DNA of 64,000 nucleotides from Eledone cirrhosa (lineage: Eukaryota). The translations under genes were made by a program, and so were the position numbers. How positions within the stretch are numbered: the stretch's first letter is position 1; each line of letters opens with the position of its first letter. The DNA is taken from the NCBI GenBank assembly GCA_964016885.1, contig OZ024742.1, forward strand, positions 113,770,001 to 113,834,000, given 5' to 3'. Below are positions 24,613 to 47,595 of this stretch, piece by piece. Under the pieces are notes generated by a model, which worked only from the letters and a program-made list of their open reading frames with translations, made no database searches and had not been told where the DNA came from.

Positions 24613-24656
24613 TTCCTTTACCGGTTTCGCAGTCCTTTTGCTTTTCAAAAGTAGAA
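24613..24656 (-). ncRNA. Hammerhead ribozyme with U3-A8 core covariation
   Basis: TTCtaCTT-TTGAAAA-GCA aaaggac TGC-GAAA-CCGG-TA-AAGGAA, near the 3' terminus of the PLE. Confidence 0.65.
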
Positions 24657-26005
24657 TTGAGATGGAGGGTCTGTGGTTTTTCTCACATCTGGTTGGTCTT
24701 TGAATGTTACTTTTGTTTTATATGGAAAAAAAAGTGGCTTGAAATGCCAGGTTTTAGAGAAGTAATTTGGTTGGTTGGTGAATAAGTTCAATAAATTTCG
24801 CGCCAGTTCGCGTTACAAAGTTCTTCAAACAAGGGGGGGGGCTCAGGTTCTTGTCTCATATATGAGTGAAGTTTGGTTGGTTGATGCAGTCACGTGAATA
24901 AGCACATCAGCTTTCGCGCCAGTTTGTTTTTGAATTTCTTTATATTTAAATAAAAGGTGGCTCACGAACGCTTTTATTTATAAATGTAATTTTATTGGTT
25001 ATATATGAAATTATGACTGTCATGTGAACAAGTACATTAAATTTGGCGCCCGTATTTTGGAATTCGTGTTATAGCCATTTAGAGATCGTTGTGCCTAACA
25101 AAAGATAATGGTCAATAAAAAGGGATGAAGAGTGTTGTTCTGAGCATGACTGATGTGCTGAAATCTAATTTGATTGGTTATACATAAAATTATGACTGTC
25201 ACGTGAACAAGTACATTAAACATCGCGCCCGTATTTGGGAATTTATTTTGTAGCCTTTTAGAGAATGTTGTGCCAAACAAAAGATTGTGCTCAAGAAAAA
25301 TGGGATGGGGAGAACTTTTCTGGTTCAGTGAATATGGCTTGTGCGCTGGGGTGTCAGAATTCAGACTTTCTTTTGAAATAAAGAAAGTATAGATACGCAT
25401 GTTTATCTGTGTGCTTGTGTGTGTAGGAAGATGATTCTATTAGTAGAAATGGGGGAGGGAGTTGTGTGTGCGTATGGGTGTTATGTGCGTGTGCGTGTAT
25501 GTGTGTGTGGAAATATGGTTTGCATGATAAAATGGAGAGAATATATATAGTTGGTGTGTGTCTATGAGTTAGGTGCGTGTGTATATGTGTGTCGGAGTAT
25601 GGTTAGCATGTAAAGATTGAGAGAATATATATATTTTGTGTGTGTGTGTGTGTGTTGGAAAATGATTTTATCAGTAGAAATGGGGGAGGGAGTTGTGGGT
25701 GCGTATGGGTGTTATGTGTGTGTGTGTATGTGTGTGTGGGAGTATGGTTAGCAGGTTAAGATGGAGAGAATATATATAGTGTGTGTGTGTGTGTGTGTAG
25801 GAACATGATTCTGTGAGTAGAAACGGGGGTGGGAGATATGTGTGTGTGGGGGGAAGGTAGGATTAGCATGTTAAGGTGTTAGAGTATTACCGTATGTTAA
25901 GGGTATTTAGTTCTGGTTTTTATTTTGTAAAGTAGGCGTTATGTGTGTGTGTATGTATGTGTCTGTTTGGATGGTTAGCATGTTATCGTGTTGACATAAT
26001 GTATA

Positions 26006-26353
26006 TTAAACAATATTTAAGGCTGGTCTATATTTTTGAATAAACATATTTTCCTTATTTATTCGTATCTGTTCTGTTGCATTGTTAGCGCAAATATAAA
26101 ATGGGAAGACTTGGAATTTGGTTGTTTTATTACTAGCGCATATGTCTAGATGTACACTTAGTGGTATCTGTCTCAGGGTTGCTTCTCGTAATTGTTGGCG
26201 ATGAACTCGCATTCTGTTTCTGAGTGTGAGTTTAGTTTGCCCTATATAATCTTCATTGCATCCTTTACATTTCATGGCATACAGTAGATTTTTTGATGAG
26301 CAAGTGAAGTGATTTTTTAAGGCAAAATTGTGTCCTGATTGAAATGTATACAT
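26006..26353 (-). pseudogene. PLE GIY-YIG endonuclease domain
   Basis: FTCSSKNLLYAMKCKGCNEDYIGQTKLTLRNRMRVH..H..RINKENMFIQKYRPALN; the upstream RT is broken by stops and frameshifts. Confidence 0.85.
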
Positions 26354-29300
26354 GTTGCCTTCAATGAGGTGAGTGCAGGTTCCTCAATTAGAGCGACCAC
26401 ATTTGTTGACAGTTGGTTGTGGGTTTGTGGTAGGTAATTTGGCATTGGTGAATAATGTTTTTAGTGATTTCGGTTGTCTTTGCTTTTGATTATTTTGTGT
26501 TTCAAGGGCTTTTTTCAATCTTGAGTCTTGTGTCAATAGTGAGATGTTCTTGTGAATAGTGTTGTAAGTTTCTGCATTTCTTGGGTTGTGTTGAGATATA
26601 TGATAGAATATTCGACGTACCTTCAATTTGTTTCTGTTTTCATAATGCATCAATGCCTATTGATTTAGCCCTTTCTATTCCATTATTTATTGGTAATGGT
26701 GGGTACTGTTTTTCGAGGAGAATTTCCTTTAATTCTTGAAGTCATTTATTTCGCGTTTCATAATTGGAGACAATTGTGCAAATTATTCTTGCTAGGTTAA
26801 AAGGGATGTTCGTATTCGTGTGATTTGGATGGTTGGAGGTGAATAGCAGGTATTGTTTGGAATATTATGTTGGTTTGTAGTGTATGTCAGTTTCAATATG
26901 TTTGTCTTTTTTTAAGATTAAGATGTCCAGAAATCGGAGTTGGTCATCGCTGTATTCCATTGTGAATATATATACAAATATATCGTCGTTACCTTTAATT
27001 AGCAAAAGTCTCACTATCTGCTTATGTAAGGAAATATATTGACTAAAATCTGATTACTTTTTAGTGTTATGGTTGATGGTAACTCTTGAGCGCAATGTCA
27101 ATTAGTTAATGGAGTGATTGTGCTTTAATATATTCAATTGGAAACTATTAAGTTATATCTTCCCATTAGGTACACTATGTTACACATGATTTAGAACTAT
27201 AAAACTAAAAATGATAAATGAGCTGTCCCAAAAGAAAGAACATTAAACATTTAAACAAATAGTAATTATGTTTTGATATATTATTTAGTAGGTAGCATTA
27301 TTGAGTACAATCATTTTCACATCATGTACTATGTCCATATGACAACTATTTAGATTTTTAAAACGACCTATTGAAATTTAGGTTTTAATACTCACGCTCA
27401 GATGTGTGATTACGCATAAACTTATGCCTATACATGTGCATATTTGCATAAGTTCAGTTTCGTATTCCAAATTTAGTACATACCATAAATGACGAGAATA
27501 ATCATGTTGATCAGTTTACGTGTTGTTATGAAAGAAATGCAGATATTGACAGACATGTGCTACAATTATAACTAGTATAGTTGAAAGTAAGGTGATGCAT
27601 GTCATATATTTACCGTTTGTTTTTATTTTACTTCTTTATATCCCGGTAACCCTTGCTAGAAGGGAAGTCTCTAGTACATCATTTCAATTAAAAAATTAAT
27701 GAAAATTAGTTGTTAGTTGTTGGAACAATCAAGAAAGTGTTTCAATCTCCGGGGAAACGCACTCTCTATTCTCTAGGCCTGGGCCGTGGGGCGGCCAGCG
27801 CGTGGGACCCCATTTGCTTATAATATCGAGAAATGGCGAGGATGAGAGAGACGGAGCCGATGATAGTGTGGGTTCGGCTCCGCTGTGTTCGGACCGGGTG
27901 TACGTGTATGTGCATGCTAACTGTCTCATCACACAAAGTAACTAATATATTAACTATTTATGATGTTATTTACATATGTGTAATGTTATATATACAGCGA
28001 TAATAACAACAGTAGCAACATCATCAAAAATAACAATACAAATATTTAATAAAAACAATAACAAAATGAAATAACTGCACATTTAATTAATCTGCAAGGT
28101 TTTCAGTATTATAAAAATGAGTACACCTAACGTAATGCCACACAATCTGTGTAGAATTTAGACTTTTGAATTACAAACCATCATATTGGCATACACAGAC
28201 GTACCAGCTGGGCTCTCGAAATGATGGTGTCCACTGAAAACTATTTTGAAGTACACGAGCTATAACTGTTGCCTACATAAAATCAAAGCTGAGATCATGC
28301 CATGGCAAAGTAATCTACACGAACATTTGTCTATACTGTGTCTTATTGTGTTTCGATTTATTATGCCTAAAAGAAAGAACGTGATGACATTTTACATTGG
28401 TTTTCTAGATATTTTTTCAGAGCAATGGTTAAATGAAAACATCAAGAATATAAAGAGTCACATGTCCAGTATGATATATGCTGACATGTTTATAAAAGAG
28501 AAAATTAGACAGGGACAGGCTAGATAAATATGTTTATTAATGCAAATAAAGAATAATATATAGACAATGAAACTTATATGTCTGTCCTATTATTCTGATA
28601 TACATCTCAAAATGGGTAATTACAGACTAGTATAAGAATCCATATATTCAAGGATTAATTATATATACAAGTGGTGTTATCTCTAATCCTATGTTGAAAT
28701 ATCACCGTCTTCATCATCATCCTCAATTTACGTAGACGTTTGGATGTTTCCATAGGTTGAGTGAGTTCTTCTTGTTGTCATAGATTTGAAGGGCGGTTCA
28801 GCGTTTTGAGGTTAACTATAGCGGTTTCTTCACATATCTTATTTTGCTTTGCTACTTAAAATAATATTAGTTGATTAAAATTATCACAACATTTTAAATG
28901 CCCAAAACATGCTTAAACAAGTATATGTTTGTTAAGAAGGGAGCACGCATTTGTGTATGTTTGTTATGCCTTTGGCTGGGTACACATGAAAGAGAATGAA
29001 CGCCTGTAAAAATGTGTGTATGAGAGGAACACTATGCTCGTGAGTGCATGGGTACCTCTGAGAATAATCTCAGTGAGAGGGCGGGGTGGAAAAGCGAGAT
29101 AGAGAGCTGATGTCAATCCAATTATATCTGTCAGAATTCCCATGTATGTGCATGAGAAGTGGCGTATGCCTAGGAATAAGAACACAAATATAGATCATGG
29201 TGGAGGGAAAATAATTGTTCAAGTTTGAGTTTTGATGTTGTTTGAAAATATTTAGGGGGTTACAGAAGAGGACGAGCTCAATGGAAATATCTGAGTAAAT

Positions 29301-46484: not shown

Positions 46485-46893
46485 ATAGAATAATAGAAAA
46501 CGAAAAATCAGTGATGCATCTGAACTCAATTTATTTTGTGTTACAATTGTTTCCTCGGCGGACAGCTCGAGTCGCGATCATTTTGTGGATCTGTCTGGTT
46601 CTCGACCCGCAGGTTCGACGTACACGTCTAAGGATTTAAGAGCATGGGATAATAGGCTCCGAAATCAGTAGACGTGTCCGTCGAACCTGCGGGTCCAGAA
46701 TAAGACAGATCCACAAAATGATCGCGTCTCGAGTTGTCTGCCGGGGAAACAATTGTAACACACAATAAATTGAGTTCAGATGCTTCACTGATTGTTCGTT
46801 TGCTATTCTATCATACTGCGGTCTGTAAGAGCATGGTGGGCACAAACGGCATACCGCCTATGGAAGCATCTTAGCTACCATCAGACATACATA
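46485..46893. mobile_element. Fold-back element (about 150-bp arms, 24-nt spacer, about 80-bp tail)
   Basis: 46485-46637 is the reverse complement of 46662-46811. Starts in (TA)n and contains GAAA-CAATTG-TA-ACAC. Confidence 0.85.
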
Positions 46894-46894
46894 T

Positions 46895-47595
46895 ATTAGA
46901 ATGTGTCGTTATTTTTACAAAATGAAAAATAACCGAGGAGGTCCTACAACAGTGAAAGTATAAGGAAAAAAGATGAAATCGAGAATACAACTGGAGTTTT
47001 TTTTCTTTAAATATATTTATTTGGTTCCTTTACCTGTTTTGTTGTTCTTCTGCTTATCAAAAGTAGAATTGAGATGGGGAGTTCGTGGTTTTTCTCACAT
47101 CTGGTTGGTGTTTGAATGTTACTTCTGCTTTATATGGAAAAAAGTGGCTCGTAATGCTAGGTTTTTAGAGGAGTAATTTGGTTGGTTGGTGAATAAGTAT
47201 AATAAATATCGCGCCAGTTCGCGTTACAAAGTTCTTATATTTGCCTTTAAAAAAATAGGGTGGGTGGGTCAGGTTATGTTTTTCATATATTAGTGCAGTT
47301 GTTTGGTGGATGCATTCACGTGAATAAGCACAACAGCTTTCGCGCCAGTTTGTGTTTGAATTTTGTTTTACTTAACTAAAGGTGGCTAACGAAGGCTTTA
47401 TTTTGTAAATGTAATTTGATTGTTTACAAATGAAATTATAACTGTCATGTGAACAAGTACGTTACATTTCGCGCCCGTATTTTGGAATTTGTGTTGTAGC
47501 CATTTAGTGAAATGTGTGCCAAATAAATGATAATTTTCAAGAAAAAGGGATGGAGGGAGTTGTTCTCAGTAGGACTGATGTGCTGAAATGTAATT
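46895..47595 (-). mobile_element. Second copy of the PLE 3' terminal region, with decayed U3-A8 HHR at 47025-47068
   Basis: Collinear with 24480-25200; minus strand CTT-TTGATAA-GCA..aaaa-CAGG-TA-AAGG. Confidence 0.85.

Follow-up and report, generated by a model that had tools for sequence, protein, structure and literature searches.

Minimal hammerhead motifs with an inherited U3-A8 pair in the terminal repeats of two abundant families of Penelope-like elements from Eledone cirrhosa

The stretch of Eledone cirrhosa DNA analysed here (GenBank assembly GCA_964016885.1, contig OZ024742.1, positions 113,770,001 to 113,834,000 of the forward strand; 64,000 nucleotides, called the window and numbered from its first letter) contains hammerhead motifs in which the core pair C3-G8 is replaced by U3-A8. 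We regard them as type I hammerheads of the minimal form, carried in the terminal repeats of two Neptune-like families of Penelope-like elements (PLEs). Both families, here named A and B, are very abundant, and their U3-A8 is inherited from master copies. They are likely weak self-cleaving RNAs assisted by dimerization or by protein, with selection on the master copies keeping either of the two 3-8 pairs. Judged from sequence comparison, we give this reading a probability of about 60 %.

A first-pass annotation, made from the letters of the window, had reported three UUGANAA cores, and all three heptamers were found where it placed them: TTGAAAA at 24648-24642 (minus strand), TTGATAA at 41698-41704 (plus strand) and TTGATAA at 47060-47054 (minus strand). 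The continuation that it described, a GCA..TGC stem II followed by GAAA-CCGG-TA, is present in the 24.6-kb and 41.7-kb copies. With the hammerhead core scored as U4 G5 A6 N7. A9 / G12 A13 A14 / A15.1-U16.1 / H17, these two copies have every core base, whereas the 47-kb copy departs from it at G12 (G12A). The family A motif (24619..24648, minus strand) runs from U3 to A17 and consists of the UUGAAAA core, stem II GCA/UGC, GAAA, the CCGG palindrome and UA, with the predicted cut between 24619 and 24618. The 5' strand of its stem I (UUC-UA-CUU, 24649..24656, minus strand) pairs with the 3' strand (AAG-GAA, 24613..24618, minus strand) through three contiguous pairs, and its stem II has 3 bp, compared with 4 bp (GCAG/CUGC) in most family A relatives. 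The family B motif (41698..41728, plus strand) has the UUGAUAA core, a U10.1·U11.1 mismatch, stem II GCA/UGC (GCAU/AUGC in its relatives), GAAA, CCGG and UA; the cut is predicted after 41728 and stem I has just 1-2 contiguous pairs. Both copies carry private, stem-weakening changes compared with their relatives. The third motif (47031..47060, minus strand) is decayed, as had been noted, with G12A, a broken stem II and CAGG in place of CCGG, and is predicted to be inactive. It is a second copy of the family A sequence at 24.6 kb (83 % identity over 707 bp) and not a third type; its U7 is a private change, A7 being found in 37 of 38 aligned family A rows. All three appear to be post-insertion fossils. 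The hammerhead pattern matched the window twice, compared with no match in each of 100 dinucleotide shuffles. None of the 144 matches (E<=5) that an Rfam scan gave for the window is to a hammerhead family, so that a standard search overlooks these motifs, as the first-pass annotation had anticipated for CUGANGA searches.

Pattern matches were counted across the whole 3.0-Gb genome with the CCGG palindrome required and the reversed pattern as control; the counts are of matches, not insertions, and inverted pairs are counted twice. There were 20,673 matches compared with 77 for the control. C3-G8 accounted for 101 of these, C3-A8 for 157 and U3-G8 for 123, leaving by subtraction about 20,292 (98 %) with U3-A8. 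In 3,589 of the U3-A8 matches, mostly from families other than A, the base after A9 is not G. The matches include motif pairs on opposite strands. U3-A8 is therefore the family norm, and a CUGANGA consensus, which would have spoken against the proposal of a natural U3-A8 variant, is excluded by the counts. The single-mismatch classes (each below 1 %) look like post-insertion point mutations, and most of the 100 C3-G8 matches listed come from a different family, whose stem II is longer. Copies of A and of an older family, F, that seemed to have C3-G8 were for the most part outliers picked by the pattern and were set aside.

Within the families, U3-A8 was present in 38 of 38 rows of A and 31 of 31 rows of B, and core mismatches were found in 6 of 456 cells in A and 3 of 372 in B, figures biased by the use of best-scoring matches. 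This uniformity is inheritance from a master copy and not selection. A comparison of core and flank mismatch (A 1.3 % and 2.3 %, B 0.8 % and 2.5 %) was rejected as a test of selection because the matches were ranked by similarity to a query holding the core and because inserted copies evolve neutrally. In a further family, E, a query without the core gave U-A in 26, C-G in 1 and C-A in 1 of 30 rows, 2 being unscorable. A few family E copies have C3-G8, U3·G8 or C3-A8 (L105, L106/L152, L153, L113, L114, L160); they possibly represent a minor sublineage with a second switch, although two of them, at a distance of 30 kb from each other, may be duplicates.

The motifs at 24.6 and 41.7 kb lie in sense orientation behind a GIY-YIG endonuclease (EN). 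The first belongs to a 5'-truncated family A copy (24457..26967, minus strand) with a reverse transcriptase (RT) thumb, a CX4CXXC linker with a stop codon at its second C, the EN at approximately 26009-26440 (PF01541, E=1e-6), a repeat-rich 3' untranslated region, the hammerhead 1,361 nt after the EN, and a 3' tail ending in (TA)n. The second lies in a 5'-truncated family B copy (40767..41921, plus strand), in which a frameshifted linker and GIY-YIG fragment (40846-41054 matched) precedes the hammerhead. Sequence comparison also revealed an inverted fragment of the family B 3' terminus without the hammerhead core (37669..37819, minus strand). The 47-kb motif is in a non-coding 0.7-kb 3' fragment of family A (46887..47597, minus strand). 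Two family A pieces, of 2.5 and 0.7 kb, and a family B piece of 1.15 kb are present in the window. A fragment of a more diverged GIY-YIG-like frame was spotted by eye in the translation at about 38400-38900 (plus strand).

In longer copies RT, CX4CXXC linker and EN follow one another in one frame order, and the copies at L227-L231, together with those of the window, match the RT and EN of a 772-amino-acid homologue. Proteins of A and B are 52-56 % identical, and both families have the CX4CXXC linker between RT and EN. The carriers have the RT followed by a C-terminal GIY-YIG domain that defines endonuclease-containing (EN+) PLEs, and according to PMC8557442 this order with a CX2-5CXXC linker occurs in the EN+ clades Neptune and Nematis. 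The claim of Neptune-like carriers thus stands as to the two families, their domain layout and the position of the hammerhead 3' of the open reading frame (ORF); the name Neptune-like describes architecture, the linker being shared with Nematis. Our protein trees were built with homologues that carry no clade names. The best named homologue, among 26, was labelled Argonauta, and monophyly of A and B was not recovered in these trees.

We read 22 distinct rows of family A. Eight of them stop about 70 nt beyond the predicted cut and the other 14 about 135 nt beyond it, and TA repeats follow in both cases. The templates of these copies were therefore uncut at that site.

At N7, the sole free position of the core, family A has A, family B has U and family E has C, and the other core bases hold. 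Stem I differs between subfamilies and yet pairs in each (CUU/AAG, CCUU/AAGG, UUUACUU/AAGUAAA, GCAA/UUGU, UAG/CUA, UCG/CGA). In A it has 3-4 contiguous pairs with compensatory variants, and in B 1-2 pairs with a duplex energy near 0. Stem II of A has 4 bp starting from G10.1-C11.1, and in B one U on each side (U10.1·U11.1, a described natural variant of the closing pair according to PMC3088659) precedes the 4 bp. A short stem III with the palindrome A-CCGG-U is common to A, B and their relatives, and would allow pairing between two motifs. We consider it likely that the fold is under selection, since subfamilies differ at N7 and their stems show covariation. Covariation of positions 3 and 8, which the first-pass annotation had proposed, was recovered among the related families F and G, where C-G, U·G and U-A states occur if one extra purine is read between positions 3 and 4. 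The further proposal, that U3-A8 is a selected functional variant, stays at the level of inference.

Families F and G (loci L183-L211, L269-L271 and L299-L335) are older relatives in which a purine stands directly 5' of UGA, a layout that we read as C3 or U3 followed by an inserted A or G. Purine-UGA matches numbered 535 genome-wide compared with 87 for the control, many of them being mutated A and B copies. Two bases lie between stem I and U4 in these families: the shifted register pairs 2.1-1.1 in 57 of 63 rows, a figure biased upward by a filter that required a pyrimidine at 1.1 and dropped the evident F/G rows L300, L308 and L333, and the literal register in 2 of 63. The filter also let in one family E row, which was later removed. 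Read with one inserted purine, the resulting 62 rows had C-G in 33, U-A in 15, U·G in 11, C×A in 1 and other combinations in 2, and pair 10.3 of stem II covaried as well (C-G 45, U-A 7, U·G 6), as did stem I; the rows had been chosen for their pattern or similarity, and many of them have a common descent.

A tree was built from the nucleotide sequences of 44 copies after masking of the three test sites, and was rooted at its midpoint. In it G separates first (support 100/99), followed by subfamily F1 with C-G and then by F2-F4 together with families C and E (100/99). F2-F4 have U·G or U-A, and C and E, which have U-A and no insertion, are nested within this group (100/100). One F1 copy falls among F2-F4. 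By median pairwise identity the copies of G are the most diverged from one another (0.85); the value is 0.91-0.93 in F1, F4, C and E, and 0.96 in A and B. From these comparisons the tree suggests the order C-G, U·G, U-A. A limited literature search gave no description of a purine between positions 3 and 4, which is weak evidence of novelty; Lunse et al. 2016 or supplement file 1 of PMC4209133 may hold one. The inserted-purine core and the apparent stepwise record are the only additions to what was known of U3-A8.

A further abundant family, H, is related to A and combines U3-A8 with C13 (L228:690-730, L339:3980-4030 and 9 other loci). Its terminal repeat is 82 % identical to that of A over 118 nt. 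At L339 the ORF upstream of the H motif groups with the B lineage while the terminal repeat is A-like, which hints at an exchange of terminal repeats between lineages. Because B-lineage ORF and A-like repeat are joined in this element, the U3-A8 of A and B may have had a single origin and been spread by module exchange. A more far-reaching scenario, which we put forward tentatively and at less than even odds, is that the genome has kept all steps of the swap (C3-G8, U3·G8 and U3-A8) as amplified subfamilies on a core with an extra purine that was later lost, that the U3-A8 module then moved from one diverged PLE lineage to another and became dominant in the genome, and that the RNA could cleave at every step.

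If the motifs function as we suppose, a tandem or inverted transcript would bring two of them together: their CCGG palindromes would pair as stem III, and cleavage after GUA would release the element RNA from a read-through transcript, possibly with assistance from the element's own protein. Most of the templates used in reverse transcription were left uncut at the GUA site, since copies extend about 70 or 135 nt past it. The passage from C3-G8 through U3·G8 to U3-A8 was probably tolerated compensatory drift in an AT-rich genome, and selection would act on the pairing of positions 3 and 8 and not on U-A itself.

Several results weigh against this reading. The window copies fold no better than shuffled sequences (z 0.23 and -0.97), and the fold with an open core lies 4.7-5.5 kcal/mol above their minimum, although a canonical C3-G8 hammerhead has the same gap (6.0). 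That U3-A8 specifically creates an occluding hairpin was rejected: with C3-G8 substituted in silico, most minimum energies stayed the same or fell, and the canonical hammerhead misfolds equally. The 5' ends of copies show no clear pile-up at the cut site, 213 of them falling there compared with 139 at a control site, with unknown denominators and with (TA)n microhomology at play, and several of the 30 such loci that were read proved to be double mutants, local duplications or inversion junctions. Strict catalytic selection is difficult to reconcile with copies that extend through the predicted cut site, and the 1-2 contiguous pairs of family B make a weak stem I. The stepwise record has its own difficulties. 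In the literal register family F has A·G in 11, G·A in 9, G·G in 4, C-G in 1 and U-A in 1 of 26 scored copies (2 of 28 being unscorable), i.e. 24 of 26 copies collected without bias have no Watson-Crick 3-8 pair, and the ladder therefore depends on accepting an unusual insertion. The protein tree contradicts the nucleotide ladder by placing a C-like lineage before G, with weak support (86.6/72); the ladder itself is rooted at a midpoint, and its family G is heterogeneous. Furthermore, C3U before G8A is one event and would occur by luck with a chance of 1 in 2. In family H all 15 rows examined, drawn from 11 loci that were encountered by chance, carry C13. Changes of A13 are strongly deleterious to hammerhead cleavage.

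Several of these observations would fit a vestigial ribozyme, a descendant of a hammerhead without useful cutting that is kept in the terminal repeat beside the sites of RT initiation, perhaps as a protein-binding fold, and whose U3-A8 is AT-biased decay fixed in successful masters. The A13C of family H, the finding that 24 of 26 F copies have a purine at position 3 in the literal register, the short stem I of B, with its core paired in competing hairpins, and the copies running past the cut site all agree with it. Moreover, insertion of a PLE in vitro did not require cleavage by its hammerhead (PMC11167929), and Naiad PLEs are described as reaching high copy numbers without canonical hammerheads (PMC8557442). 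Mere decay, however, does not readily explain that U4, G5, A6, A9, G12, A14, A15.1, U16.1, H17 and the palindrome are retained between families whose proteins are 52-56 % identical and whose flanks can hardly be aligned, that N7 varies freely while the other core bases stay, or that C×A is nearly absent among the subfamilies. We consider the vestigial reading less likely than a weak, pair-conserving ribozyme, and regard it as its strongest competitor.

It is much less probable that U3-A8 was positively selected as an attenuated form, a slower ribozyme that keeps the downstream RT initiation sites attached and so raises transposition. The excess of U3-A8 over C3-G8, about 200 to 1 among matches with the CCGG stem III palindrome, would fit such an advantage, as would the presence of U3-A8 in A and B, the youngest and largest families (pairwise identity 0.96), and the ends of copies beyond the cut site. 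The copy number rests, however, on very few masters and possibly on a single origin, and age and decay by themselves drop older families from exact-match counts. Chance AT-rich sequence without hammerhead descent can practically be dismissed: the genome is indeed AT-rich (26-47 % GC per 2 kb), Rfam finds no hammerhead in the window and folding gives no signal over shuffles, but the 20,673 matches compared with 77 in the control, the two window matches compared with none in the shuffles, the fixed placement after the PLE ORF and the C3-G8 of related families all speak for descent.

The window also contains minimal hammerheads of the canonical C3-G8 type, their stem II being long, at 12359 (plus strand), 53825 (plus strand) and 12666 (minus strand); those at 12359 and 53825 lie in one repeat, of which a further related copy is at 9469-9858. 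A 397-bp head-to-head inverted pair (57513-57914, 97 % identity) has a C3-G8 hammerhead in each arm (57759, plus strand, and 57668, minus strand), in which stem II starts from U·U and the palindrome is GTAC. Other repeats are a 1,135-bp inverted repeat (16539-17673 and 17991-19125, 99.4 % identity) and a tandem array at 52035-53592 (period about 291 bp) with five tRNA-like matches on the minus strand, three of them above the Rfam gathering score. An ORF at 42711-43127 (plus strand) has a Spin-doc zinc finger (PF18658, E=2.9e-8), and the next ORFs, at 43128-44254, have no Pfam match; the region 42711-44254 is probably the remnant of a DNA transposon. Outside Eledone, a viral scan for relatives found none, and six metagenome pattern matches were rejected as relatives, having no PLE ORF and looking like chance. 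In the contig of a bacterial metagenome-assembled genome, identical C3-G8 hammerheads (L268:2053 and 8709) flank a distant PLE (29 % identity), which is probably eukaryotic contamination.

The U3-A8 swap itself adds little, having been in print since 2011 and in PLEs since 2014. The practical gain is the knowledge that about 20,000 motifs of the Eledone cirrhosa genome escape searches with CUGANGA or Rfam. The families G, F1-F4, C, E and H (with A13C) form a natural panel for two questions: do PLE hammerheads persist because they cleave or merely because of the way they fold, and does a swap of the 3-8 pair go by way of an active U·G intermediate?

The premises of the first-pass annotation agree with published work, C3-G8 being a Watson-Crick pair (PMC3884650) and the U3-A8 swap being active in vitro (PMC3088659). 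As a discovery, U3-A8 did not survive comparison with the literature: it is known from nature, also in PLEs with the same heptamers, and a descriptor for it has already been used. It was first reported by Perreault et al. 2011 (PMC3088659), and Cervera and De la Pena 2014 described it in Schistosoma PLEs, with a dedicated descriptor and about 1,300 matches (PMC4209133). In the passages searched of bioRxiv 10.64898/2026.07.22.740005 no U3-A8 content was found. The variants of Perreault et al. share with ours U3-A8, a U10.1-U11.1 mismatch, weak stems II and III and, in saltern variants, core insertions near C3; U3-A8 is rare among them and dominant here. The insertions given in the text of that paper lie near C3 and stem I (2a, 2b), after A6 and at 13a, and in the passages searched none was found between positions 3 and 4.

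Among known PLEs, the closest parallel is Cercyon of Schistosoma mansoni (PMC4209133), whose hammerheads are likewise minimal, of type I, located in terminal repeats and endowed with U3-A8; its supplementary alignment contains the same UUGAUAA and UUGAAAA cores, and its copies are mostly single and truncated or arranged as opposite-strand pairs, as here. The host differs, being in our case the mollusc E. cirrhosa, as do the number of matches (about 20,000 compared with about 1,300), the 3-5 bp stem II, the 4-nt CCGG palindrome and the U10.1·U11.1 of families B and E. Minimal PLE hammerheads are reported in the same paper to cleave weakly as dimers. One PLE hammerhead reconstituted in vitro cut only when the element's protein was present, and its cleavage was not needed for insertion (PMC11167929), the latter being a further point against selection for cutting. 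Poseidon of Anolis carolinensis, as described there, resembles our elements in having a hammerhead in the pseudo-long terminal repeat, AT-rich targets, an uncleaved RNA template and two discrete 3' ends downstream of the ribozyme (the "tail"); it differs in its C3-G8 core, in an ORF that starts inside the ribozyme and in cleavage that has been shown, while ours is predicted from sequence. With Neptune and Nematis (PMC8557442) the carriers share the RT and C-terminal GIY-YIG with a CX2-5CXXC linker, insertions flanked by microsatellites, and inverted truncated copies.

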